This document shows positions 1 to 57,045 of a stretch of 63,986 nt of DNA, in pieces. Under the pieces are notes generated by a model. That model saw nothing but the letters and a program-made list of their open reading frames with translations, did no database searches and had not been told where the DNA came from. Within the stretch, counting starts at the first letter, position 1, and each line of letters starts with the position of its first letter. A program made the position numbers and the translations under genes. The stretch comes from Microcaecilia unicolor (Eukaryota): NCBI RefSeq assembly GCF_901765095.1, contig NC_044037.1:104487279-104551264 (forward strand), in the 5' to 3' direction.

Positions 1-437
1 GGGAAATTATAGACCGGTGAGTCTGACGTCGGTACCAGGCAAAATGGTAGAGGCTATTATCAAGAATAAAATTACAGAGCACATACAAAAACATGGGCTG
101 ATGAGACAAAGTCAGCACAGATTTAGTGAAGGGAAGTCTGGCCTCACCAATCTACTGCATTTTTTTGAGGGGGTGAACAAACATGTGGACAATGGGGAGC
201 CCGTGGATATTGTGTATCTGGATTTTCAAAAGGCGTTTGACAAAGTGCCTCATGAAAGACTCCTGAGGAAACTGGAGAGTCATGGGATCGGAGGTAGGGT
301 ATTACTATGGATGAAGAGCTGGTTGAAAGATAGGAAGCAAAGAGTAGGGTTGAATGGCCAGTATTCTCAGTGGAGAAGGGTAGTTAGCGGGGTCCCACAG
401 GGGTCTGTGTTGGGACCGCTGCTTTTTTTTTTTAATT
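1..437 (+). mobile_element. CR1/L2-clade LINE reverse-transcriptase fragment. Starts inside the element at the window edge and is truncated at a poly-T (the poly-A tail of the neighbouring minus-strand element).
   Basis: ORF 17..442 contains RT motifs (YLDFQKAFDKVPH, GSVLGPLLF). It is ~85% identical at protein level to the RT ORF at 53043..53876. Confidence 0.8.
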
Positions 438-2110
438 TATAAGCATCTTTATTAAGCATTGAAAACCAATACAACAGCAAGTAACTTTCCAAGATAATGC
501 AAAGTGCATAATAGAGAACACAATCTCAAAATACAAGAACATAGGTGTCATAAGAACACATGAGTACAAATTCTTTTTTTTATTATTCTTTATTTATGCT
601 TTTAAATACAATGTTCAAGGATAACCTTGTTCAGAAATGCAGGTAGAAATGAAAACTTATATTCCAAACTTTCACTTATAATAAATTTAAGAGAATACTT
701 AAAGAAAATACAATGATTGGAAAGTTTCTACAAACAAACAAACATAATATTTAACCTTTCTTAGACCTCAATTAACGTGAAGGGGGGAAAAAGAGTTAGA
801 GAAGTTAGATACAAACAAAATTTCAAATTAAAGAAATGGCTGCATTCTCTCCAGGTACTATTTCATTTCACTTGTTTCAATTCTACAAATGATTTAAGTT
901 GTTCCAGTGAAAAGAAAGTATATTTAGTTTGACCTAATTTCACTACACACTTGCATGGGTATGCAAGAAAAAAGGAAGCACCTATATCTATTGTCCTTTG
1001 TTTTAAAGCAAGAAACAACTTCCTTTTTTGTTGTGTAGACTTGGTGACGTCTGGGTAGATCCAAACTTTAGAACCATAGAATTGAGCTTTCAAATTTCTA
1101 AAATAAAGTCTTAAAATTGCATTGTAGTCTTGCTCAAACACCATAGATACACTCATTGTAGCTCTGTTCGTTATAATATCAGAAGATTGTTCCAAAATGT
1201 CAGAAATATTTTGTAAATCAAAATTGTCTTTCTCAGGACCTTGTACTCCTTCTCTAATTTTAGGAATATAATATATTTTGTTTAGCGGGGGTGTAGCCTC
1301 AGGAGGAAAATTCAAGATTTCTATCAGGTACTTCTTAAAGGTATCAATCAGAGTTACCCCCGCTATTACTGGAAAATTCAAAAATCGGAGATTTAGGCAC
1401 CTGTTGTAATTTTCAATTTGTTCAAGTTTACGTCTCATATCTATAGAATCCTTCGTAGTCACATTCTTAAAGGCATTCAAATTATCAACCTCTTTTTGTA
1501 TAGATTGTACTTGTTTTGTTATATTATTTTTAACAGAGTCTACGGTTTGTTTTAAGTCCTCAAACTTAGTATTTAGAGTAAGCACATCACCTGATGTCTT
1601 CTGAAGTGTAGTGGTAATCTGGTCCAACATCACCTTTAAAGTTTGCAGTGTCACCTCCTCAGTCTGTACCGTGGAAGACAAACTTCCAGCGAGTCTCCGA
1701 GTCGTTGCCTGCATACCTGGGTCCTCACTGGAAGCCCCTTTCGACACGCCATCCAAGTCGACGGGGTTTCCCACCATGGACGTTCTCGACATCGGGCTGG
1801 GAGGAATCAGTGAGATCGATGGTGGAGACAGGGAGACTTCCTCTCCCAGTAGGGCTTTTGATTCTCCAGACCTCCCCGCTATGGGATCCTCTCCCCGAAG
1901 CCTGGGAACACCGGGGGAAAAAACGCTCCAGCGATGTTTGAGCCGGAGAGGGAGTTGAGATAGGTGGAGGCACTATCCTCAAAACTCCCTTATATTTAGT
2001 ATGGGGCATTTTCGCCGAGGAAAAAAAGAATTTCAGCGCAAATCTCACAGAGCGTTCTCACCAACCATCCGATGCGGCAGCCATCTTGAATTTCCCCCAC
2101 ATGAGTACAA
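424..2110 (-). mobile_element. L1-derived ORF1-only ('half-L1'/HAL1-like) non-autonomous element with a poly(A) tail.
   Basis: Intact 309-aa ORF (1792 to 863, minus) with a coiled-coil N-terminus, an L1 ORF1p RRM-like motif (ENYNRCLNLRFLNFP) and a CTD-like motif (YPDVTK...AYPCK). No ORF2 follows. The minus-strand poly(A) is at 424-437. A 'caagatggc' 5' motif near 2085 is shared with the copy at 47091. Confidence 0.6.
863..1792 (-). CDS. L1 ORF1p-like protein (Transposase_22-like; coiled coil + RRM + CTD). The ORF is intact.
   Basis: Six-frame ORF of 309 aa. Motifs as above. It is homologous to the degraded copy at 47090-48830. Confidence 0.6.
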   Translation of the reverse strand: MSRTSMVGNPVDLDGVSKGASSEDPGMQATTRRLAGSLSSTVQTEEVTLQTLKVMLDQITTTLQKTSGDVLTLNTKFEDLKQTVDSVKNNITKQVQSIQKEVDNLNAFKNVTTKDSIDMRRKLEQIENYNRCLNLRFLNFPVIAGVTLIDTFKKYLIEILNFPPEATPPLNKIYYIPKIREGVQGPEKDNFDLQNISDILEQSSDIITNRATMSVSMVFEQDYNAILRLYFRNLKAQFYGSKVWIYPDVTKSTQQKRKLFLALKQRTIDIGASFFLAYPCKCVVKLGQTKYTFFSLEQLKSFVELKQVK

Positions 2111-4753
2111 ATTCAATGCATACATGGATACTAACTATACCCTTATTTTTCAGGTTTTATACCCCCCTAACCCCCCCTGCAAAGCCGACCCAATGATCCG
2201 CCTCAGCCAACGCATCCCCATCCTAATACCCCCCCCCCCCAGAAGCCCTCCCCCCCCTTTCATCCATCCATAAACAAATAAACTGAATAAGTAGTCACCA
2301 GTCATGCAGGGCAATGTTGAACAAAAGGTTCCCATATCTTTTCCCATCTGGGCAATGTCACCGCTGTCAAATGTTCCATCTCACATATGTACCTCACCTT
2401 AGCAACCCACCCGCTCAGCGATGGGACACTGGGAGATTTCCAAAGCTTCGCCAAGTGTATTCGAGCAGCCTGCAAGGCCCCCCGCACCAGTAAAAATTGA
2501 GACCCTGTAACACCCACTGGCCTCTGTCCAAGCAAAAATACCGCAGGATGCCACTGTACAGGAATGCCCACCCAAGCCTGAATACGCGACTGAACAGCCC
2601 TCCAATAGGCCCTCGCCTTAGGACACAGCCACAAAATATGTACCATGGTTCCCAATTCTCCACATCCTCTCCAACACCGGGCAGACTCCGTATTAAACAT
2701 ATGGTGCAGTCTCACAGGAGTCAGGTACCATCGGTAAAAAACCTTAACCACATTCTCCTTCACAGCCACAGATAAAGAGGACTTCAAAAGCCCCCTCTCC
2801 AACCGCATCCAAGTCTCCTCCGATAAAGTAAAATCCAACTCCTTCTCCTAGTTTTTTCTGTGTAAAAGATAAGGTTTAAGGCGCTGGCTCAAATACCCAT
2901 ACAAGGAAGTGATCATCCCTCGGGTACTCCCGGAGGCAACACACAACTCTTCTAGAAGGTCAACATCCCTAAACAAACAAGCCCTATACATAGGACTCTG
3001 CAGAAAATGCTTCAGTTGTAAATAAGCATACTGATCTTGAGGCCGAAGACGAAAGCCCTCAACTAATGTCTCGAAAGAAACAAACACTCCTTCCTCACAA
3101 AGCTGCCCCCACATATTCAAGCCCAACTCCTCCCACCGCTGAAAAGTCGTCCTCTCCATCCCCAGCCCAAACAAAGGGTTATCTCCAATCGGCACTAGCC
3201 TAGATAAAAAGGGCTGACGTGCCGGGAACAGAAGATCCCAATAGTAAACAGTGGCGTGAACTACAGGTGGAAACCGTTCAACCCATCCTCTGTGCTTACT
3301 GGGAAGCCACATTAATTGCCCCAACCTACACGAACCTACCAGGGACTGTTCAATATGGACCCACAATTTATGATCCTCCTTCCAAAACTACTCTATGGCC
3401 GATGTAGCTTGAGCAGCACAGTAATACCAAAAAAGGTTAGGCACTCCCAACCCTCCATCTCGCCTACATTTATACAAAAAGGCTCTCGGTAAACGCGGAC
3501 GTTTTTGATTCCAAATAAAACTAATCAACCTGGCTTGCAGGCTAGATAAAAAGGACCTTGATAAACACAAAGGAAGAACCTGAAACAGATACAATAACCT
3601 AGGAAGAACATTCATTTTAAGCACAGCAATCCGCCCAAACCAAGAAAGACCAACAGCATTCCAACGGTCCAAATCGCTATGAATCGCCTTTTGAAGAGCC
3701 AGATAATTAACAGCGAATAACTCCAACAAATTCCAAGGAATCTGTACCCCTAAATATCTAAGATCTCGAGTAGACCATTTAAAGGCAAAAGATGTCCTCA
3801 ACGTCTCCTTTAATCCCGGTGGCACATGCACCGCCATACCAATAGACTTACTCATATTTAGCTTATAAGCAGACACCCCCGAGTATGCCTCAATTTCTTT
3901 CAGTAGGTTCAGAAGAGACACCAACGGACGAGTCAAAGACAGGAGAACATCATCTGCAAATAATGCAATCTTAAATTCCTTGCCTCCCTCTGTTACATCA
4001 GAAATATCCACACTCTCCCTGATAGCAGATGCCAAAGGTTCCATAGCTAGTGCAAAGAGAAGATAACGGACACCCCTGGTGAGTGCCCCTCTCCAAAGAA
4101 AAAACCCTCGAGTGGCCACCATTGATTTTCACACAAGCCTTAGGAGAAGTATAGAACGCCTTGATCCGTATTCTAAACAACGGTCCCACTCCAAATTTTT
4201 CCAAGACCTTACCAAGATATCCCCAATGAACCCTGTCAAAGGCCTTTTCAGCATCAAGACCCAACAGGACCATAGGCAGGCTCTTCTTTTGTGAGACATA
4301 AAGTAAATCCAAAGTTCTTCTAATGTTATCCATAGCCTGTCTCCCTGCCACAAACCCCACCTGATCAGGATGACTCAAAATAGGAAGCAACTTAGCCAAG
4401 CGATTAGCAAGCACCTTAGCCCAAATTTTAACATCCGTATTTAAGATGGAAATAGGACGTTATGATGAACATTCAGTTACATCTTTCTCCGGCTTCGGAA
4501 TGACAGCCAACCAGGCCTCCATCATGAATTTCGGCAAAAATGCACCTTCTCTCACCGAATTAATTACCAGTGTCAAGTATGGTGCCAACTCTCCTGCAAA
4601 GACCTTAAAAAACTCATTGGTAAATCCATCTAAACCTGGAACTTTACTCGTCGGTAATTCCTTAATAACCCCCAAAACCTCCTCCACTGTCACCGAGGTG
4701 TCCAACTCCCTCCTCTGTTGTTCAGTCAAGGCCGACAAACTTTGAGCGTTCAA

Positions 4754-5573
4754 ATAGTTATCAATATCCCTGTGACGTCTGTGCTCACCTCACCCTCTGG
4801 TGGCCAGAACCGGTGGCTGCTATGAACTATAGACTGTCTTGCTGTTCCTGCCCGTTCCAGACTTTAGCCTAGTCCAGTCCGGATCTTCCAGGCTGCCAAA
4901 CTTACTCTTCTTGTTTGTCCATGATCAGCACCCGTAGCTGCCTGGTGATTGCTGCAGCTGAAGCCTCAGCTGCTGCTAGGCTTATTAGCCATTCTGAAAT
5001 CTTTCTGCTTGCCTTTGCATTGCGTCTAAGGCCCTGGTATGTTGGGGTGCTGGTGCACTTCTGCTGTTCCCAGTTTCTAGTTTATTCCTGCCTTGATTCT
5101 TGTCTGTTCTTGCTAGTCTATGGATAGTTAGATTAGATTGTTGTTTGTTTGTTTGTTTGTTTGTTTGTTTGCTTGTCTTGTCTCTGAGTTGTAGTTCTCT
5201 GTTAGTCCTTGTCTGTTTGTATCTTACTGGCTGCTCTGCAGCTTTTAGTTTTGTGTCTTGTTAGTCAGTGTTTTGCTCCCTGTTTTAGTGGCTGTTTTCA
5301 GCTTTCAGTCCTGTCCTTTATCCTTTCCCTGCCTTGCTGTCCCTGTGCTGCCTAGCTGCTATCTAGTCCTGCCCTGTCCAGTAAGTCCTGCCGGCCACCT
5401 GAAGCCTGGAGCTCAACTCTTGGTGAAAGGTGGCCAGGTGCAGGTGAAGCCTAACTATTTGTCAGAAATCTGCCCTGTCTCTAGCGTGGGGTGGTTTTGC
5501 CTGCCACTGCCGCTCCTCGGCAGTGGTCCAAGGGCTCACAATCTAGTTTCCTGCTTGTATGCATGACAATCCC
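4754..5573. repeat. Unclassified insertion interrupting the L1 ORF2 between the EN-linker and the RT. It contains a (GTTT)n microsatellite at ~5138-5182.
   Basis: The ORF2 reading frame is lost between 5574 and 4753. There is a GTTT x~10 tract, and the 3' end (..caagggctcacaatctag..) resembles the MIR-like SINE core. Confidence 0.45.
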
Positions 5574-6713
5574 TCACCTGTACAGTGGCATCTTCCTTGT
5601 ATAGCTTTTCAAAAAATTGTGCAAACCGTTCCCGGATACTAGTAGATTTCTGTAACTGAGCCCCCCTTCATCCCGAACTCGCAAAATATGCCTATCTGCT
5701 CTCAACTTTCTCAACTTGGTAGCCAACAAACGCCCAGGCTTATTAGTACATTCATAATTAACTTGCCGCAGTTGTGCATGCACAGATTTCAGACTCTCAT
5801 CATGCAATGCAGCCAATTCTAATTGCACCGCCTGAAGCGTCTGATAATCTGACATAGAGCCAAAGGCCTTATACTTATCTTCCAGAGCTCCTAATCTTTC
5901 CATACAATTAGCCAGACGAGCCCTTTGAGCCCTAGCCCGATTACTTGCACATTTAATAAAGTATCCCCTTGAAACAGCCTTAAAAGCATCCCACACTACA
6001 CCCAAAGATGGCCCCAATTCCAGGTTAATTTCAAAATACTCTTTCAAAATAGGAACAAAGTTGTTAACAATATGTGACTCTTGTAGCAAACAATTATTAA
6101 ATGTCCATCTCCGATCCCGAACCTTCTCTCTTAAATCTGGAAGAATAGCCCAGACTGGAGCATGATCCGAAATAGTAGTATGCCCTATGAATGAGTCTCC
6201 ACCTCCATCTGACAGGGATTTGTCAAAAAAAATATATAATCCAACCACGAATGAGTCAAATGAACCGGGGAATAGAAAGTATAGTCCCTTTCCCTTGAAT
6301 GCCCAAGCCTCCAGACATCATAAAGACCCATAGAATCTACCAACCCTCCCAAAGCCTGAGAGAGTCTATATCAGTCGAAGCAGGAGTAGCAGAGCGATCC
6401 AACCTCGGCTGCATAGTAGCATTAAAATCCCCCGCCACCAGCAACTTGCCCCGCACAAAAGTCTGCAGAGCTCACCGAAGACGATAAAAAAAGATGTCCT
6501 GGTGCTCATTTGGTGCATAAACACAAGCCAAAGTATACTCCTCCTGCTCCAACAAGACATGTAGAAAAAGAAAACGACCCCCAGGGTCTCTCTTCAAGTG
6601 CAGGAGCTGCACCTGCAGATCCTTATGAAACATAATAGCCACTCCTCTCTTTTTAGCCCCCTGTGCATCCGACGCATAATACAAAAGCGGATATTGAGTA
6701 AAGAATAACAAAC

Positions 6714-7049
6714 CAGTGGCGTACCAAGGGGGAGGGCGGTGGGGGTGGTCCGCCCCGGGTGCACAACGCGCCTGGGGGATGCCACGCCGGTCAGCGTTGT
6801 TGGTTTCCATGCTCCCTCTGCCCCAGAACAGGTTACTTCCTGTTCCGGGGCAGAGGGAGCATGGAAACCAACGACGCTGACTGGCGCGCGGCACCCCCCC
6901 CCCCCAGCGGCGTGCACCCGGGGGGGGTTCTTTCGCCGGTGTCCCTTCGCCGGGGGGGGGGGGGGGGGATCGCGCTGCACCCAGGGGGGGCGGGGGCGGG
7001 GCGCATCGGCGATCCGCCCCGGGTGTCAGCGCCCCTCGGAACGCCACTG
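6714..7049. mobile_element. hAT-like foldback MITE (CAGTGGCG.. family, subfamily with a central long hairpin), inserted in the L1 EN domain.
   Basis: Termini cagtggcgtacc.../...gaacgccactg. Perfect 8-bp TSD TAACAAAC at 6706-6713 and 7050-7057. Central ~45-bp stem hairpin at ~6790-6883. Confidence 0.75.
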
Positions 7050-7742
7050 TAACAAACCTTCATGTTTTCTCAAGAAATGAGTTTCCTGTAAGAAAACCAC
7101 ATGTAGGTTTACCATACGCAGCTCCTTGAGCAAAGAATGCCGTTTAAATGGAGAATTCAAACCCTTAATATTGTAAGTTAGTACCCTACATTCACCCATT
7201 GACATAATATCCCTCAGAATAATTGCACAGATGAAAGGCTAAAGCCCGTCCCACCTTCCCACCCAACCTTCCCCCTAAGCCCTGATCCCCCTTCCCCCCC
7301 CTACACACCACCAAACAGAAGACACAAGCCCTCTGAGTGGGAAAACCAGGAAGTAAGTCTCACATATAAGACACACCCAGCTCACCTCCCCCCACCCAAC
7401 TCCCTTGCCCCTATCAACAACCTTTCCAATCCACCCATACACTGACTCATCCATAGAAAGCGCTGAATCTGACTCCGACTCCGACAGAGAAGCAGGAGCT
7501 GCAGCTTCGTGGTGCACAACGGCCTTCCCAGCCGAGCACCCTGAACTTCAAGTCGCGGCTTTTCTTCCCGCCATTGAAGATTTACTCATAATTGCTGGAC
7601 ACGATTGCTGGACACCTCCTACTCCTTTTCGCAAGTATTTAAGCCTTTTACAACCCCTGCAGCCAGGTGTATCGCTACTTTTCAGGAGCCAGATGAAGGA
7701 GAAAGCAAACTAGGCTGCCATATCGTGTAGTGACATCACTTC

Positions 7743-9030
7743 CTCCTCGGGACCACTGCTTTTTAACATATTTATAAATGACCTAGAGATGGGAGTAACT
7801 AGTGAGGTAATTAAATTTGCAGATGACACAAAATTATTCAGGGTTGTCAAGTCGCAGGAGGAGTGTGAAAGATTACAGGAGGACCTCGCGAGACTGGGGG
7901 ATTGGGCATGCAAGTGGCAGATGAAGTTCAATGTTGACAAGTGCAAAGTGATGCATATGGGTAAGAGGAACCCGAATTACAGCTATGTCATGCAAGGTTC
8001 CGCGTTAGGAGTTACGGCAGGTGGGGGGAAGAGGGGTTGGTGGTTGGGAGGCTAGGATAGGGGAGGGCAGACTTATATGGTCTGTACCAGAGCCGATGAT
8101 GGGAGGCGGGACTGGTGGTTGGGAGGCGGGAAATACTGCTGGGCAGACTTATACGGTCTGTGCCCTGAAAAGGACAGGTACAAATTCAAGGTAAGTTATA
8201 CACATATGAGTTTGTCTTGGGCAGACTGGATGGACCATGCAGGTCTTTTTCTGCCATCATCTACTATGTTACTATGTTACTATGGACCTAGAAAGGGATC
8301 TGGGAGTCATCGTGGATAAGCCGTAAAAAACTTCTGCTCAGTGTGCTGCGCCGGCTAAGAAAGCGCACAGAATGTTGAGTATTATTAGGAAAGGGATGGA
8401 AAACAAACATGAGGATGTTATAATGCCATTGTATCGCTCCACTGTGCGACCGCACCTCGAGTATTGTGTCCAATTCTGGTCGCCGCATCTCAAAAGAGAT
8501 ATAAAGGAATTAGAAAAGGTGCAGAGAAGGGTGATGAAAATGATAAAGGGAATGGACTTCTCTATGAGGAAAGGCTGAGAAGGTTAGGGCTCTTCAGCTT
8601 GGAGAAAAGGCGGCTGAGGGGTGATATGATAGAAGTCTGCAAGATAATGAACGGAGTAGAGCGGACAGATGTGAAACGTTTGTTTACACTTTCAAACAAC
8701 AAGAAAACCATGGGACACAAGATGAAGCTAGAATATGGTAGATTTAAAACAAATAGGAGAAAGGTTTTCTTTACTCAGCGTGAAGTTAGACTCTGGAACT
8801 CGTTGCTGGAGAATGTAGTGACAGCAGCTGGCCTTACGGAATTTAAAGGGGGTTTGGACAGATTCCTGAGGGAAAAGTCAATTGAACATTATTAATTTTT
8901 TTTTTTGGGGGGTGGGGGTTACCGGGTTCTTGAAGCCTGGATTGGCTGCTGTCGGAGACAGGATGCTGGGCTTGATGGACCCTTGGTCTTTTCCCAGTAT
9001 GGCGGTGCTCATGTACTTATGTACTTGTGA
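7743..9030 (+). mobile_element. CR1/L2-clade LINE 3' portion (RT C-terminus + 3' UTR ending in a TTATGTAC repeat). It carries a ~270-bp internal insertion at ~8016-8287.
   Basis: ORFs 7789..8055, 8372..8578 and 8464..8895 match the RT C-terminus of the 53043 copy (FADDTKLF, KCKVMHMGK, HLEYCVQFWSPHLK, LGLFSLEKRRLRGDMI). The 3' end ..ctggattggctgctgtcgg..gtacttatgtacttgtg is shared with 54470-54590. Confidence 0.75.
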
Positions 9031-9862
9031 ATTTTCAATTGTAAATATTTTATTCCTTTAAACATCACTTTTCTTGCATTCCACTCTGCCTGTGGTGAGC
9101 CCTCACTTCTGGGGCTTTCAAAAGAGTAGTAGCAGTTAGACACCTCAGTAGCACAGGCCTTGGGAGCCTGAACTCATTGGATCTGGTAGCGTATGGCAGT
9201 CAGCGGCTTTTAAATTGCTGACAGCCATGGATTGAATTAAGCCTGGATATTCAATGCCAAGCCACGTCTGGACTCCGACATTGAATATCCACATAAGTGC
9301 AGTCATCTGGAAGTTAACCGGGCGCCAGCTGGTATCCAGATCAGTGCCTGGTTAGCTCTGCGGAAAAGCTATGACACCCTTTTTGCTATCCTAACTGTAT
9401 GCACTTAACTGGTTAAGTGCCAAGTTCTGCCCCTCGCATTCACCAGACAGTAGACCTTCATCATGGGTCAACAAAAACTTCTCCACATAAAAGCAAGTGG
9501 GTCAAAATGCCACAGTAACAGTACACCTATGATGTGGCTGGTGGGGATCCCCAAGCCCCGCCATCTGAAAACTCTCAACACTTCTCCCTGTTCTGACCTG
9601 GTTTTACAGTCTGCTTCACTGACACAGATTACTCAGTAATTACTGTGTATTCTTTTGGATTCGTATTAGGTAAATGAGACTTTTATTAGAGGTTCTAAAA
9701 TCTAAGATGCACAATGAGATATATATATATATAACTGAAAAGAAACAATGATATCTATCTATAGTTAAACAATACCTATCTATAAACAATCATTACATCA
9801 CTGGTCCCTACATCCAAGCAATGCTAGGAGTTTTTTGACCAGGAAAAGCAATAATAAACTAT

Positions 9863-24102: not shown

Positions 24103-25910
24103 CAGGGCCGGTCATAGCAAGTGCGGGGCCCTATGCAGACCAATTTGGTGGGGCCCCATCCTAGCCCCGCCCACCCTAGCCCTGCCCCCACCCTAGCTCC
24201 GCCCTCACCCTAGCTCCACCCCACTGATAAGATTCCATTTTTAGAAAAATTTTTTATTTATAAAGACTAATGAAGCTGAATCCCCATTCTGCTGAGCCCA
24301 AGCAGCTTCTCTCTCAGTGTATAGCCCAAGCTTCATTATTATTATTAATATATTCTTATAACCAGTGCGTTTTTTATAGCAAAAAGGTGCCAGTACTCAA
24401 ATGCTAGCCACCCTTCAGGGGTGGGGTGATCATTGAGGGACCCACCCCATAATATAATCCAGGCCCCCTGAATTGGTGTGTAGAGCCTGAGCTCTTTCAT
24501 TAAAACCCAGGGACCATGGGTCAATTTTAGCAGACAATAGAAAAGGTGCCAGCACTCAGTACCCCCAAGTACCCCCTCAAAAAAAAAGCCCTACTTATAA
24601 CCCACAAAATACCACAAAGTTCACTGTGGCTAATATACCAAAACTGAAAAAACCCCATCAGGAATTACAATGTCTATACACAAATTTTCAAAACAAACAA
24701 ACCTCAGCTACCATGAATTAACAAAATTTCTAAAAAAAATAAATTGTGACAAAGACAAATGAAGCTAAACTTGAACAAAAAAACTGAATGAAATAATAAG
24801 CACAATGCTATCATGAAACCTCCCCTCCCCAGAAATTATTCAGTTCAAGTCCACTACAATTAGTAGTTCCAATTCTCATAACAAAGGAGAATAACGGAAA
24901 AATATTAAGAAAAGATCCAGTACTTTCAAATTCCCCTATTATTCTGTAACCCATCAAACCAGAGAGGCAAGTAGCCACATCAGTTACTAAAATAGTTTGA
25001 ACTGATTGTACCTACTTTATATCAGATTTTGCTACTTCATGATTTCCATTCTCAGATTTTAGCTTAGTAATCTTTTCTTCCTGTGATTGCAGTCTAGCTT
25101 CCAAATGATTAATTCGAGGTGTCATATCATTAATTACTGGAAGCAGTGTTTTAGCTAAATCTGCTATTGCCATCCAAATTTTTATCAGGAGAAATATCTG
25201 CAGATCTATGTGAAAATAACCCAGATATGTTACAAACAGCCTCTTCCAAGCCAGAAGATCTTACTTGCTCATCTTCTCCAGCAACTAATGTTGTTGGGCC
25301 AAATTCCTCTCAGGAAGGCAGACATTTCCAACCCTTGCACCGTCCGCAAGCGTCGTTAGATGAGAGAGACACTTCTCCTGATCTCCTGCCTGCATGGAAT
25401 CCGATTTCGATTTCCGATTTGGCATAAGTGCACAACTGTTGGCATCAGCAACGATGGCTCACCTCACGTCCTCACCACCTCCGACCAGGCTCCAGCTTTT
25501 CCCGCTCAGTGACTCCTGCCCTCGCGTCTGGAAACAGGAAATACATCAGAAGGCGGGACATTGAGCGGGAAGCTGGAGCCTGGAGGTGAGCCGTCGCGCT
25601 GCAACTGTCTGTCGTCGCCGTCGGAGGCGGGGCCATCACTGCCTGGGCTGGCTCGCTGGCATCGCTCAGTTAGTCGCCGGGGACTCGGGAGCTGACGGCG
25701 GGCTCAGCGGGCCCAAGCCGGGGGGGGGGGGGGGGGGCGCCGCGCCGGTGGTGGCGGGAGCGGAGCGGCTGAGCCGCGAGAATGGGGATCATCTCAGGTG
25801 ACTAAGGCGAGCAGCGGCGGAGGTCAGAGCGGAGGCGCGCCGCGCGGAGCCCCCTTATGCGCGGGGCCCTATGCGGCCGCCTTGGTCGCCTCTGCCTAAG
25901 ACCGGCCCTG
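24103..25910. mobile_element. hAT-like non-autonomous element 'B' (1.8 kb), same TIR family as element A.
   Basis: TIRs cagggccggtcatagcaagtgcggggccctatgc.../...gccctatgcggccgccttggtcgcctctgcctaagaccggccctg. 8-bp TSD GCGATGTC/GTGATGTC (one mismatch) at 24095-24102 and 25911-25918. G17 homopolymer at ~25722-25740. Confidence 0.65.
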
Positions 25911-47059: not shown

Positions 47060-49090
47060 TATTGAATATTTTTAATAGTAAATTTTGGTGTCAAGATGGC
47101 GTCCTGAACACGTTTGCTGCCCGATCGGAGCTGCCCGCTGGTTTTTCCTTTAGCAATTTTCCTATCCTAATGCCTCACACTAAAAGGAAGGGGACGGTAA
47201 AAGGCCAACTGCCGTTGGCCAGAACATCTTCCCCGATCCAGCAGACGATTGATCGCTATGTGACGAGTCTTCCACTAACCGGAACGGTTGATCCCGAGTT
47301 GAGAGCCATAGAAGGAGCATCGGCTCTCTTGGGGCCAGAGACATCATTATCACCACCGGATCTTAATCCTCCTCCATGTCCTGCGTTCTTTGGGTGAAGT
47401 ACAGAGGGCCAAACCAAATCGGAAGTCACTGGTGTTGGGGCCTTGTTCAGCAGCGTACCAGCCCAGACCACAGGAGAAGTGATCGGTGAACTTTTAGCTC
47501 CCAAGGAGATTTCACAGGAGTCTATTTGGAGAGCTATTCAGGCTTTAACAACATTTGTTTCAAAATCTGCCCAGGAAACTACTCTTCTCGTGAGTAAAGT
47601 TGAAACTTTGACTACCTCATTACCGCAAACTACTGAAGACCCATCTCTTTAACAAGGCATACCACAAAGATCAACAAATGTGAACTCCTATACATATATC
47701 CTGAACTGTCTTGTAATATTTGCTTGTTAAACTACTATCATGTTTTATCATTGTCATGTTACCCAAGATCCTTCTGTAATACCAAATGTATATTTTCTTG
47801 TGTACTACCACCATTCATGATGTATTATAAGCCACATTGAGCCTGCAAAGAAGTGGGAAAATGTGGGATACAAATGCAATAAATAAATAAATAAAAAGTT
47901 AACTAAGAGACAGTTAATTTTCTGACTACTTAACTTTTCCTATTTATTTAATCTCTCTATGTTACAATTTGCAAGTGAATCTTGTATAACTTGTAAAGTA
48001 TAAATAAAATTGTTGATAAAAAAAAAAAAAGAAAAAGTTAACTAATGCAACAAGAAGTTAAAGATTTAAAATCTTCTACTGAAATGTTAATCAAAGATAA
48101 AACTTTGACTTCTAGGAAGACTGAGCAAATAGAGAACTATAACAGACGATTGAATTTAAGGATTTTAAAATTTCCTATGACTACAGGAATTACCTCAACT
48201 GATTTCTTTAAAAAGTATTTGCTGGAAGTTTTACAATATCCTGCTACAGCTATTCCCCCGTTAAATAAAACTTATTATTTACTTTTACCCAGTGGCGTTC
48301 CTAAGGGGGCTGACACCCGGGGCGGATCGCCGATGCGCCCCGTCCCCCGGGTGCAGCGCCCCCCCGGATGCAGCGCGACCTCCCCCGGTGAAAGGACACC
48401 CCCCACGAAAGAACCCCCCCTGGGTGCACGCCGCTGGGGGGGTGCTGTGCGCGCCTGCCCTCCGTTCGTTCCATGCTTCTTCTCTGCCCTTGAACAGGAA
48501 GTAAACTTTAATTGTTTCATTCGTATGTGAGCAAGATATAAATGCTGTATTAAAATTATACTTTAAGAATTCCCTAAAAATCTTTTATGGACAGAGAATT
48601 TGGGTATTTCCAGATGTCACAAAGACTACACAAGATAGACGGAAACAATTTCTAGCTCTCAGAGAAGAGACAAAGGCGATGGGCGCAACATTCTTATTAG
48701 CCTATCCATGTAAATGCCTAATACGATATTTGGGGAATAAATATGTCTTCTTTATACCTGAACAACTTAATACATTTTTGGATATGAAAAAGCTTTCCAA
48801 TAAACCAAAGGAATGAGAGAAAAACTGCTGATTAAGTATAGATTAAGTGGGAACTACGGACAGGCCATATAATTATAACTTTTTTCCTCTTTTATTTTTG
48901 ATCTCCTCGTCTGTAGAACAAGCCCCCCCCCCCCCCCCAAATTGTGGACTAAGGAAGCGATTGAATGTGGGTTAACGAATTTTCAACTAAATTTTCTAGT
49001 GTATTTTTTTGTTATGGACACATTCTTTCTCTATATTTCTTTTTGCAAGTTAATGCTTGTAAAATGTTAAAATGAAATAAAGAAAATTAA
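47060..49090 (+). mobile_element. Second ORF1-only half-L1-like element. It is degraded (frameshifts) and interrupted by a truncated hAT MITE (48290-48506).
   Basis: ORFs 47053..47397, 47443..47652 and 48045..48530 (..EQIENYNRRLNLRILKFP..PPLNKTYY) and the frame at 48590-48830 (FPDVTKTTQDRRKQFLALREETKAMGATFLLAYPCKCL) are collinear with the ORF at 863..1792. There is an A-rich 3' end. Confidence 0.6.
48290..48506. repeat. Truncated copy (5' half) of the hairpin-containing hAT MITE subfamily.
   Basis: cagtggcgttcctaagggggctgacacccggggcggatcgcc... up to the first hairpin arm (ctctgcccttgaacaggaagtaaac). Homologous to 6714-7049 and 56610-56956. Confidence 0.55.
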
Positions 49091-49587
49091 ACATAGTAAA
49101 TTTTACTGGTGGAGTGATAGAACCAAACAGTGTTCCCAAGTCAGGTCCTGAAATACCCCACTTGCCAGTCACGTTTTCAGGATATCCACAATGACTATGC
49201 ATGAAAGAGATTTGCAAACAATGGAGGTTAGCACATGCAAATCAATCTCATGCATAGTCATTGTGGATATCCTGAAAACCTGACTGGCAAAGGGGTACTC
49301 CAGGATCAACTTGGGAAACACTGGTGTAAAAGGCACTTAAAGCTTTTCTTGTAGACTCTGTACAACCAACTTATACCCAAGTCCCTATGGACCACAACTT
49401 TTTGCCAGAAAACCTTCAGTGCATAGTAGAGCTGTACCACATAGCATATTTTACTATTTGGCTGAATACAAATAATGAAATATATTATTCAGCTTTAACG
49501 TAACAAATAGAAGAAGAAACACTTGAACACTGATTTCATTTTGATTTCAGTAGGGTTTAGCACAGTACAGTCCTGGATTATTTGTAC

Positions 49588-52879: not shown

Positions 52880-54590
52880 AGCATGATTTAGCAACAGAGC
52901 CCCACAATGGGCAGATGAGAGCCATAAGGAGCAGAAGTAAGGGCAGTTCAGCAAACTGAAGAGTAGCAAATCTCCTGGACCGGATGGTATTCATCCTAGA
53001 GTACTAATAGAACTGAAAAATGAGCTTGCCGAGCTTCTGTTAGTGATATGCAATTTATCCTTAAAATCGGGCATGGTACCGGAAGATTGGAGGGTGGCCG
53101 ATGTAACGCTGATTTTTAAAAAAGGTTCCAGGGGAGATCCGGGAAATTATAGACCGGTGAGTCTGGCGTCGGTGCCAGGGAAAATGGTAGAGGCTATTAT
53201 TAAGAACAAAATTACAGAGTACATCCAAGGACATGGATTACTGAGGCCAAGTCAGCACGGCTTTAGTGTGGGGAAATCTTGCCTGACCAATTTACTTCAA
53301 TTCTTTGAAGGAGTAAACAAACATGTGGACAAAGGGGAGCCAGTTGATATTGTGTATCTGGATTTTCAAAAGACGTTTGATAAGGTACCTCATGAAAGGC
53401 TACAGAGGAAATTGGAGGGTCATGGGATAGGAGGAAATTTCCTATTGTGGATTAAAAACTGGTTGAAGGAAAGGAAACAGAGAGTGGGGTTAAATGGGCA
53501 GTATTCACAATGGAGAAGGGTAGTTAGTGGGGTTCCTCAGGGGTTAGTGCTAGGACTGCTGCTTTTTAATATATTTATAAATGATTTAGAGATGGGAGTA
53601 ACTAGCGAGGTAATTAAATTTGCTGATGACACAAAGTTATTCAAAGTCATTAACTCGCGAGAGGTTTGTGAAAAATTACAGAAGGACCTTACGAGACTAG
53701 GAGGCTGGGCAGCTAAATGGCAGATGATGTTTAATGTGAACAAGTGCAAGGTGATGCATGTGGGGAAAAAGAGCCCGAATTATAGTTACGTCATGCAAGG
53801 TTCCACGTTAGGAGTTACGGACCAAGAAAGGGATCTGGGTGTCATCGTTGATAATACACTGAAACCTTCTGCTTAGTGTGCTGCTGCAGCTAGGAAAGCA
53901 AATAGAATGTTGGGTATTATTAGGAAAGGTATGGAGAACAGATGTGAGGATGTTATAATGCCATTCTATCGCTCCATGGTGCGACCGCACCTTGAGTATT
54001 GTGTTCAATTCTGGTCGCCGCATCTCAAGAAAGATATAGTAGAACTGGAAAAGGTGCAGCGAAGGGCGACAAAAATGATAGCGGGGATGGGACGACTTCC
54101 CTATGAAGAAAGACTAAGGAGGCTAGGGCTTTTCAGCTTGGAGAAGAGACGGCTGAGGGGAGACATGATAGGGTTATATAAAATAATGAGTGGAGTGGAA
54201 CAGGTGGATGTGAAGTGTCTGTTCACGCTTTCCAAAAATACTAGGACTAGGGGGCATGCAATGAAACTACAGTGTAGTAAATTTAAAACAAATTGGAGAA
54301 AATTTTTCTTCACTCTGGAATTCGTTGCCGGAGAACATAGTGAAGGCGGTTAGCTTGGCAGAGTTTAAAAAGGGGTTGGACGGTTTCCTAAAGGACAAGT
54401 CCATAGACCGCTACTAAATGGACTTGGGAAAAATCCACAATTTCGGGAATAACTTGTATAAAATGTTTGTACGTTTGGGTAGCTTGCCAGGTGCCCTTGA
54501 CCTGGATTGGCTGCTGTCGGGGACAGGATGCTGGGCTCGATGGACCTTTGGTCTTTTCCCAGTATGGCATTACTTATGTACTTATGTAGG
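52880..54590 (+). mobile_element. CR1/L2-clade LINE, 5'-truncated, with a near-complete RT domain and 3' UTR. It is the best-preserved copy of this family in the window.
   Basis: ORF 53043..53876 plus 53907..54353. Upstream, SKSPGPDGIHPRVL is in frame. RT motifs YLDFQKTFDKVPH, FADDTKLF, KCKVMHVGK. The 3' end ..cattacttatgtacttatgtagg is like 8990-9030. Confidence 0.85.
53043..53876 (+). CDS. CR1-like reverse transcriptase ORF (277 aa; partial, ends at a frameshift/stop).
   Basis: Six-frame ORF with RT motifs as above. Confidence 0.8.
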   Translation: MICNLSLKSGMVPEDWRVADVTLIFKKGSRGDPGNYRPVSLASVPGKMVEAIIKNKITEYIQGHGLLRPSQHGFSVGKSCLTNLLQFFEGVNKHVDKGEPVDIVYLDFQKTFDKVPHERLQRKLEGHGIGGNFLLWIKNWLKERKQRVGLNGQYSQWRRVVSGVPQGLVLGLLLFNIFINDLEMGVTSEVIKFADDTKLFKVINSREVCEKLQKDLTRLGGWAAKWQMMFNVNKCKVMHVGKKSPNYSYVMQGSTLGVTDQERDLGVIVDNTLKPSA

Positions 54591-56464: not shown

Positions 56465-57045
56465 GAGGAGCGGCCTAGTGGTTAGAGCACCTGTCTTGAC
56501 ATCCAGAGGTGGCTGGTTGAAATCCCCACAACTGCTCCTTGTGATCTTGGGCAAGTCACTTAATCATTCATTGCCTCAGGTACAAAATTACATTGTGAGC
56601 CCTCCAGGGCAGTGCTGTAGCGAGGGCTAATGGCACCCGGGGCGGGTCGCCGCTGTGCACCCCCCCCCCCCCCGGGTGCAGCACAGCACGACCCCCCCCC
56701 CCTCTGCGGCGCAGCCCCCCGGAGCACAAACACCCCCCGGACCGCATTCTTACCTGCGGGAGGGCCGATCCGCCCCGAGTGCACGTCACTCGGAGCTGCG
56801 TCGGCCCCGCCGGTTCCCTGCTCTCTCTGCCCTGGAACAGGAAGTAACCTGTTCCGGGGCAGAGAGAGCAGGGAACCAGCGGGGCCGGCACCCCCCAAGC
56901 GCGTGCACCCAGGGCAGACCGCCCCTCCTGCCCCCCCCCCCCTTCCTACACCACTGCTCCAGGGACAAGTACCCAACTATAACTCACCTTGAGCTACTAC
57001 CGAAAAAGGTGTGAACAAAATCCAAATAAATAATGTTTAGGGGAT
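56465..57045 (+). mobile_element. tRNA-derived MIR-like (CORE) SINE, split by a hAT MITE insertion (56610-56956).
   Basis: tRNA-like head with A box (ggcctagtggttagagcac) and B box (ggttgaaatcc). MIR CORE-like ..cttgggcaagtcacttaa..cattgcctcag..ttacattgtgagccctccaggg. It continues after the MITE as gacaagtac... Confidence 0.55.
56610..56956. mobile_element. hAT-like foldback MITE (hairpin-containing subfamily) inserted in the MIR-like SINE.
   Basis: Termini cagtgctgtagcgagggctaatggcacccggggcgg.../...ctacaccactg. Perfect 8-bp TSD CTCCAGGG (56602-56609 and 56957-56964). Central hairpin ~56815-56880. Confidence 0.7.

Follow-up and report, generated by a model that had tools for sequence, protein, structure and literature searches.

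Evidence for a caecilian family of HAL1-like, ORF1-only LINE-1 derivatives

A stretch of 63,986 nucleotides from the caecilian Microcaecilia unicolor (NCBI RefSeq assembly GCF_901765095.1, contig NC_044037.1, positions 104,487,279 to 104,551,264; hereafter the window) contains two LINE-1 (L1) units in which a gene for an ORF1p-like protein, the product of the first L1 open reading frame (ORF), is followed by a short 3′ untranslated region (UTR) and an A-rich tail. An earlier note on this DNA had called them 'half-L1' elements and likened them to HAL1, a non-autonomous L1 derivative that encodes only ORF1p (PMC5753468) and whose families are attributed to Smit 1999 and to Bao & Jurka 2010 in PMC5753468 and PMC3627910. 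The analogy is supported by ORF1-only units bounded by target-site duplications (TSDs), which we found both in the window and in a second caecilian, Rhinatrema bivittatum. We consider it very probable that both loci belong to a caecilian family of non-autonomous, protein-coding, ORF1-only (HAL1-like) L1 derivatives.

The limits of the two window copies are set by exact TSDs (Table 1). Read on its minus strand, copy 1 starts with GGGGAAATTCAAGATGGCTGCC and ends with AATAAAGAATAATAAAAAAAA, with its own AATAAA at 589-594 and a tail of eight A residues at 574-581. The 17-bp sequence that encloses it, GAATTTGTACTCATGTG, has two exact matches in the whole window, at 557-573 and 2098-2114, where 0.03 would be expected by chance. 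The element that had been placed at 424-2110 is therefore real, with limits that the TSD moves to 574-2097. The insertion point lies 187-204 nt downstream of the ORF2 stop of another L1, within the 3′ UTR of that host element. Copy 1 had been said to abut the ORF2 pseudogene; it is indeed an independent insertion, but a nested one, and the nesting is three deep: a CR1 element (+) contains the host L1 (-, 423-7748), which contains copy 1 (574-2097). Copy 2 begins with GGTGTCAAGATGGCGTCC, ends with AAATAAAGAAAATTAAAC and has its 3′ UTR at 48817-49092; its duplicated 12-mer, ATAGTAAATTTT, occurs exactly twice in the window against a chance expectation of 0.01. This degenerate unit is the second ORF1 element that the earlier note had located on the plus strand at 47060-49090, now delimited at 47087-49092. 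Both window copies are thus bounded by TSDs, which proves the claim that they inserted independently of the neighbouring L1. Because its TSD is perfect and it is a single homopolymer base short of a full ORF, copy 1 is a young insertion.

Identification of the encoded protein depended on a profile of its own family. A Pfam search of the window protein detected no Transposase_22, Tnp_22_dsRBD or Tnp_22_trimer even at E<=0.1, only coiled-coil noise, and phmmer against the PDB gave nothing relevant; homology therefore had to be sought with a family profile. An exhaustive HMMER search of the protein library returned 85 homolog clusters, 66 of which were used to build this profile. It matched human ORF1p 2YKP (E=5.5e-25; profile positions 97-314 on chain residues 2-207, spanning the end of the coiled coil, the RNA recognition motif (RRM) and the C-terminal domain (CTD)), 2LDY (E=1.4e-18), the mouse ORF1p CTD 2JRB (E=2.5e-13) and the human ORF1p RRM 2W7A (E=2.7e-9). 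Twelve of the 66 family members also matched Pfam PF02994 (Transposase_22), with a best E of 9.3e-07. Furthermore, the AlphaFold2 model of the 309-residue protein (pLDDT 86.9) has a helix at 49-130 followed by two alpha/beta domains, and the top ten Foldseek matches in the PDB were all chains of the human ORF1p trimer (best E=1.7e-10, TM 0.79, rmsd 3.1 Å). Sequence identity to human ORF1p is only ~15%; in the alignment the motifs NLR..FP, FPD..TQ..RK and YP.K appear to be conserved between the two. Together, the profile matches and the predicted fold establish that the window protein belongs to the L1-type (Type II) ORF1p superfamily, and the family profile, the model and Foldseek agree on the RRM and CTD that had been proposed for it.

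The source species of the 30 closest homologs were looked up, and all 30 came from one of the three sequenced caecilians, M. unicolor, G. seraphini and R. bivittatum. When the family profile was run against proteins through a word index, the matches were for the most part distant ORF1p-like proteins of fish. More than 30 RefSeq models of the same three caecilians (P0001-P0033) are transposon ORFs, annotated as 'uncharacterized protein LOC...' or as fusions, among them fusions with serine protease 55 (PRSS55), proteasome assembly chaperone 1 X1 (PSMG1), MTRF1 X2, caspase-14 X3 and mucin-2. These chimeric models are probably annotation artefacts or exonisations. One practical consequence of such a family would be that dozens of 'uncharacterized protein' and chimeric models in three caecilian genomes are flagged as transposon ORFs.

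The uninterrupted 309-residue frame of copy 1 is a remainder of a longer gene. An ATG at 2009 encodes MPHTKYKG...SPAQTSLERFF in a frame that differs from that of the 309-residue ORF, and a continuous ORF of 381 residues appears once a single C is taken out of the T6C5 run (1913-1923). The closest database protein, P0001 of M. unicolor (382 residues, 65% identity), begins MPHSKRKG...SSPAQASLERYF; in a tblastn comparison with copy 1, its residues 1-33 fall in one frame, and the match shifts to the next frame for residues 39-382. From the frame switch between residues 33 and 39, together with the ORF obtained by deleting the C, it follows that the ancestral gene had ~381 codons. The start MP.K(R/Y)KG is common to copy 2, P0001 and the Rhinatrema units (MGRKRKAK in one of them, L008). 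The present ORF is the ATG-initiated remainder of this gene, having lost ~72 N-terminal residues and kept all of the folded domains. The gene had been described as 'fully intact'; this is true of the 309 residues at 863-1792, but the conserved start is frameshifted with respect to them. The additional base in the T6C5 run could be a real mutation or a homopolymer error of the assembly.

Copy 2 belongs to another subfamily and is both older and disrupted. Its ORF starts with MPHTKRKG at 47170 and is broken by stop codons and by two sets of inserted sequence, and the ORF1p profile matches it in three segments (47398-47649, 48042-48527 and 48505-48813). In the ORF1p alignment, one of the insertions, at 48290-48507, takes the place of approximately residues 177-201. 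The proteins of copies 1 and 2 are 43% identical in a trimmed alignment and 50-53% identical in the best tblastn segments (48045-48795). Elsewhere in the window the family profile found no ORF1p-like coding, save for a weak match at 25015-25260 (-; E=2e-4), which involves the coiled-coil part of the profile only and is probably compositional.

We tested the proposed ORF1-only architecture by looking for ORF2 contiguous with ORF1 at other loci. Eight R. bivittatum loci, each with 10 kb on either side, were picked across the deep branches of a neighbour-joining ORF1p tree; they occupy unrelated positions beside different host genes. All eight units have the same layout, with a 5′ UTR, ORF1, an A+T-rich 3′ UTR of 210-275 nt, AATAAA or ATTAAA and an A-tail. 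Exact TSDs of 12-16 bp flank seven of the eight, and 9 of 10 (12-17 bp) when the window copies are included. A tblastn search with six L1 ORF2 segments found no ORF2-like coding inside any of these ten complete units and none downstream of the eight in Rhinatrema. ORF1 was therefore contiguous with ORF2 in none of the ten, and the absence of ORF2 from the two window units, as previously asserted, was borne out by the same search. The L004 locus holds two further copies with the same blueprint, one on the minus strand that starts with GGGGGACAAGATAG followed by MPHTK, and one at 8558-9232 that is 5′-truncated, as would be expected from target-primed reverse transcription. In four Rhinatrema units the ORF that opens at the conserved start is intact; it has 407 residues in L007 and 414, 429 and 443 residues in the other three. 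These intact ORFs, together with 5′ monomers that are 98-100% identical to one another, imply recent activity of the Rhinatrema units.

Among the verified ORF1-only units protein identity is ~30-65%; for the units examined as DNA it is 30-50%, so that their synonymous sites are saturated. In all ten, the 3′ UTR measures 210-289 nt and is 67-76% A+T, the end carries AATAAA or ATTAAA and an A-rich tail, and the first base is a G. A run of C residues is found 43-117 nt into the 3′ UTR in eight of the ten. At the 5′ end, a G-run followed by a CAA(G/A)AT box lies within the first 25 nt of six units, and also of the extra minus-strand copy at L004. The ATGGC core of copy 1 corresponds to GCCAT, the core of the YY1 motif; in human L1, YY1 binds a motif with this core at the extreme 5′ end and positions transcription initiation, and the promoters of mouse L1 consist of tandem monomers with YY1 motifs (PMC11602158). 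Two types of 5′ UTR occur among the units, a short one with the YY1 box and one built of tandem monomers of 169-198 bp. GCCAT occurs in the L005 monomer, and TGACGTCA and TATA-like motifs occur in the monomers of both L005 and L006. The two types resemble the human and the mouse style of L1 promoter, respectively. We infer that each unit brings an internal promoter with it and would therefore remain transcribable after every jump. Several of the TSDs open with an A-run, which fits the targets of an L1-type endonuclease. At the sequence level, the A-tails, the 12-17 bp TSDs, the A-runs at the start of TSDs and the 5′-truncated copy are the marks that target-primed reverse transcription of the L1 type leaves behind.

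These features can be assembled into a model of how the family propagates. Each unit would be a self-contained transcription unit, its 5′ UTR starting at or near the transcription start. In the window copies this region is made up of a G-run and a CAAGATGGC box of YY1 type, in some of the Rhinatrema relatives of tandem 169-198 bp monomers. The ORF of ~380-440 codons would give an ORF1p of the L1 type, in which the N-terminus is basic and the coiled coil, RRM and CTD are all present, and the AT-rich 3′ UTR of 210-290 nt would supply its own AATAAA or ATTAAA signal. The polyadenylated RNA would then be translated, and the ORF1p would coat its own RNA in cis. An autonomous L1 would lend the resulting ribonucleoprotein its endonuclease and reverse transcriptase (ORF2p) in trans, and target-primed reverse transcription would insert a copy with an A-tail and a TSD of 12-17 bp. 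As neither enzyme is encoded by the units themselves, ORF2p would have to be supplied in trans. That ORF1 has stayed open across lineages only 30-65% identical suggests that ORF1p is needed in cis. Long-term upkeep of the ORF of guinea-pig HAL1 has likewise been taken to imply ORF1p in cis and ORF2p in trans (PMC3627910).

Several points weigh against this reading. The sample consists of the ten complete units (two in the window, eight in Rhinatrema) and two partial ones, and the Rhinatrema loci were found via RefSeq gene models, a route that may favour isolated ORFs over ORF1s within masked full-length L1s. All of the steps above, from transcription and translation to coating in cis and mobilisation in trans, are ones that we infer. 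Neither an autonomous partner nor a close parent of the units was found: a protein search with the reverse transcriptase segment of the host L1 returned no caecilian ORF2 protein (best identity 44%), and only two L1 ORF2 relics were met, in the host L1 of the window and at the L007 locus. In its present form, copy 1 is incapable of giving the full-length protein. The exact ATGGC core is present in only four of the ten 5′ ends, the TSD of copy 1 opens with GAATTT and has no A-run, and a TSD was looked for but not detected around the main L004 unit.

The rival that survives best, although we regard it as unlikely, is that the ORF1-only copies are defective by-products, each made anew from a full-length L1 by premature polyadenylation after ORF1, by splicing, by truncation at the 3′ end or by an internal deletion. 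In mammals, L1 transcripts are well known to be polyadenylated prematurely. A possible source also exists, as the L007 locus of Rhinatrema contains, at ~760-4944 (+), a degenerate L1 in the canonical order ORF1-spacer-ORF2. Its ORF1 CTD lies at 1175-1474 (profile match E=4.9e-11), its G-rich and unusually long spacer of 848 bp at 1478-2325, and its ORF2 starts with MASKMVSFLSLNI at ~2326, with the endonuclease (EN) domain from ~2366 and the reverse transcriptase (RT) domain at 4555-4944. Bicistronic L1s of the ordinary kind, in which a homologous ORF1 precedes ORF2, therefore do occur in caecilians. However, what follows ORF1 in this canonical element, a spacer with 34% G, is unlike the 67-76% A+T of the unit 3′ UTRs. 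A comparison of the unit 3′ UTRs with the L007 post-ORF1 spacer and with the host L1 3′ UTR found nothing in common beyond homopolymers; the sense strand of the host 3′ UTR has G-runs, in contrast to the C-run of the units. We accordingly rejected an origin of the units by premature polyadenylation of full L1 transcripts, their 3′ UTRs matching the spacer and ORF2 region in homopolymers only. By-products would also not be expected to share, in ten of ten cases taken from different deep branches, one style of ORF1-to-3′ UTR junction and one size and composition of 3′ UTR, nor to keep full-length 5′ ends and intact ORFs. Finally, each subfamily has its own type of 5′ UTR, with near-identical monomers, which points to lineages replicating as ORF1-only units.

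We think it very improbable that the units are instead retrocopies of one or a few domesticated ORF1-derived host genes. ORF1 can be domesticated, as L1TD1 shows (PMC4161310), and RefSeq annotates more than 30 of the units as protein-coding genes with intact ORFs. However, no sampled locus has the character of a single, non-insertion gene of the L1TD1 kind: each such 'gene' is an intronless, poly(A)-tailed insertion with a conserved promoter-like 5′ terminus, 9 of 10 have TSDs, and the loci share neither position nor neighbouring gene. Several of the models are chimeric with neighbouring genes and look like artefacts or exonisations. A single source gene would, moreover, not give the full architecture in lineages that are 30-65% divergent.

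The host L1 of copy 1 bears on a further rival. Its ORF2 pseudogene, which the earlier note had correctly separated from copy 1, occupies 2302-7205 on the minus strand (ATG at 7205-7203, stop at 2302). In the ~540 nt upstream of this ORF2 (7206-7748), hmmsearch with --max, that is with filters off, gave no ORF1 signal. The composition of this segment (G 0.35, C 0.17) matches that of the spacer between the ORFs of the L007 canonical L1 (G 0.34, C 0.15); on this evidence, the simplest reading is that the host L1 is probably a copy 5′-truncated inside a long inter-ORF spacer. The host L1 opens with the same ten nucleotides, GAGGAGGAAG, as the ORF1-only unit of L007, a match that may be fortuitous. 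A 'split' caecilian L1, in which ORF2-only and ORF1-only elements complement each other without parasitism, could draw on this shared opening, on the lack of an upstream ORF1 signal in the only L1 ORF2 element of the window and on the fact that no ORF1+ORF2 element with intact ORFs was seen, but with a canonical ORF1-spacer-ORF2 relic at L007, an upstream segment most simply explained by truncation and a 10-nt purine match of a kind that can arise by chance, it too is very improbable, and we largely rejected it. A caecilian family of HAL1-like, ORF1-only units thus remains by far the most probable account of the two window loci.

Table 1. Features of the window and ORF1-only units of Rhinatrema bivittatum. 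Window coordinates are those of the 63,986-nt stretch.
Feature	Position	Strand	Length	TSD or repeat	Remarks
Copy 1, complete ORF1-only retrotransposed unit	574-2097	-	1,524 bp	exact 17-bp TSD on both sides	
5′ TSD of copy 1	2098-2114	-		GAATTTGTACTCATGTG	exact repeat
5′ UTR of copy 1	2010-2097	-	88 nt		YY1-like box TCAAGATGGCTGCC at 2076-2089
Ancestral ORF1 of copy 1	863-2009	-	~381 aa		MPHTKYKG start at 2009; 1-nt frameshift in T6C5 run 1913-1923
Uninterrupted ORF of copy 1	863-1792	-	309 aa		disordered N-terminus; coiled coil 49-130; RRM ~134-217; CTD ~220-308
3′ UTR of copy 1	574-862	-	289 nt		73% A+T; C-run at +76
3′ TSD of copy 1	557-573	-		GAATTTGTACTCATGTG	exact repeat
Host L1, distal 3′ UTR, AATAAA and A11 tail (outside copy 1)	423-556	-			beyond 3′ TSD of copy 1; ends where CR1 frame resumes
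Host L1 body	2115-7748	-			~540 nt G-rich sequence, ORF2 pseudogene, proximal 3′ UTR
5′ TSD of copy 2	47075-47086	+		ATAGTAAATTTT	exact repeat
Copy 2, degenerate ORF1-only unit of a different subfamily	47087-49092	+	2,006 bp	exact 12-bp TSD	~1.4 kb minus nested insertions
Later A-tailed insertion(s), one or two, within copy 2 ORF1	47653-48032	+	~380 bp	AAAAAGTTAACTAA at 47893 and 48032	
GC-rich inverted-repeat element fragment within copy 2 ORF1	48290-48507	+			77% identical to the 6735-7065 element
3′ TSD of copy 2	49093-49104	+		ATAGTAAATTTT	exact repeat
L001 unit			1,548 bp	ATATGTATACATG	short 5′ UTR, CAAGATGG box
L002 unit			1,618 bp	GAAATGCAATG, extends into A-run	short 5′ UTR, CAAAATGGCC box
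L003 unit			1,345 bp	AACACATGTCCA	short 5′ UTR, CAAGATGTCC box
L004 unit			1,616 bp	none found	short 5′ UTR, CAAGATGGCC box
L005 unit			2,246 bp	AGGAGTCTTCTGAGC	5′ UTR of 2.9 x 173-bp monomers, 100% identical, at 9301-9808
L006 unit			2,395 bp	TAAATGTGCCCCATGC	5′ UTR of 2.9 x 198-bp monomers, 99% identical, at 9206-9789
L007 unit			1,942 bp	AAATAAGATAAGGAAG	5′ UTR ~460 nt, no large monomers
L008 unit			2,600 bp	AAATGTTAGCAC	5′ UTR of 5.8 x 169-bp monomers, 98% identical, at 8862-9845

The remaining repeats of the window surround or interrupt these elements. The host L1 is inserted in a CR1 element (+), with a near-identical duplication, GCAG(T/C)GGTCCC, at 412-422 and ~7749-7759. The CR1-like RT frame (+; 17-442 and ~7749-8055) is broken at ~430 (...GPLLF) and resumes at ~7749 (...GPLLFNIFINDL...). 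A further CR1-like RT fragment lies at 53238-53561 (+) and is 31% identical to the L1 RT query segment. A GC-rich element of ~330 bp with internal inverted symmetry, resembling a miniature inverted-repeat transposable element (MITE) or a short interspersed element (SINE), interrupts the EN region of the host ORF2 at 6735-7065; counting its relatives at 48290-48507, 56610-56925 and 25717-25767, the window contains four or more copies or fragments of it. Directly after the 3′ TSD of copy 2, at 49105-49335, is a MITE-like palindrome of ~230 bp with 79% complementarity between its arms; it has a weak relative in the Rhinatrema locus L003 (19816-19909).

It is also possible, though we hold it to be doubtful and offer it tentatively, that the ORF1-only state had a single origin, older than the crown-caecilian divergence of Rhinatrema from Teresomata, and that it has since been maintained and has diversified into dozens of subfamilies whose promoters switch between the YY1-box and the monomer type. 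Were this so, the units would form a LINE lineage that is long-lived and 'semi-autonomous', dependent on borrowed ORF2p, possibly the dominant ORF1-bearing form of L1 in these genomes and far older than the ~29-44 Myr reported for guinea-pig HAL1; their promoter swapping would resemble that of autonomous L1s.

The earlier note had remarked that such elements are not commonly noted outside mammals, and in the literature searched HAL1 is indeed described for mammals only (PMC5753468, PMC3627910). Full-text searches of the same literature yielded no report of HAL1, half-L1 or ORF1-only L1 elements outside mammals, a negative that is provisional, and ORF1 goes unmentioned in the caecilian genome paper. 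The chief evidence from nature that an L1 RNA with its own ORF1p can compete for the ORF2p of another element comes from HAL1. A diversified and apparently recently active caecilian family would show that the ORF1-only strategy evolved independently in a distant tetrapod lineage, and its divergent ORF1p sequences, two promoter types and uniform 3′ UTR would be natural material for studying the role of cis ORF1p in trans-mobilisation. It extends a known phenomenon to a new vertebrate class and is not a new principle or mechanism.

Comparison with known systems places the units close to L1 and closest to HAL1. Like full-length LINE-1 elements of human and of mouse (Tf/A/Gf), they have A-tails, TSDs and 5′ truncation, and their predicted product resembles a Type II ORF1p with coiled coil, RRM, CTD and RNA-binding motifs; the YY1 core near the 5′ terminus recalls human L1, and the tandem-monomer 5′ UTRs of some units recall mouse L1 (PMC11602158). 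They differ from these elements in having no ORF2, and so no EN or RT, in their size of 1.3-2.6 kb and in their AT-rich 3′ UTR with a C-run. L1TD1, an L1 ORF1-derived domesticated host gene of mammals (PMC4161310), is likewise a stand-alone ORF1p-like coding sequence without ORF2. However, L1TD1 is a single syntenic host gene, whereas the caecilian units are numerous insertions at unrelated loci, flanked by TSDs and ending in poly(A), each with its own 5′ terminus. HeT-A of Drosophila is a gag-only telomeric non-LTR retrotransposon of the Jockey clade, with an unrelated Gag fold and a reverse transcriptase provided in trans. It resembles the caecilian units as a gag/ORF1-only lineage dependent on reverse transcriptase in trans, and it shows that long persistence of such a lineage is possible; in contrast to the dispersed, L1-type caecilian units, it is directed to telomeres and benefits its host. 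For ORF1-only telomeric elements, a discussion is given in bioRxiv 10.1101/2025.06.09.658640. With HAL1, the units share the coding of ORF1p only, poly(A) tails, TSDs and an ORF1 whose coding capacity is kept; like HAL1, they probably derive from L1 and probably form multi-copy families, and both are presumed to use ORF1p in cis and ORF2p in trans. They differ from HAL1 in their independent origin in a different vertebrate class, their close relatives being all caecilian, and in being highly diversified (30-65% identity) with at least two types of 5′ UTR. In structure, therefore, the units are HAL1-type elements, as an independent caecilian lineage, and what goes beyond the textbook HAL1 is the breadth of their diversification and the turnover of promoters within ORF1-only units.

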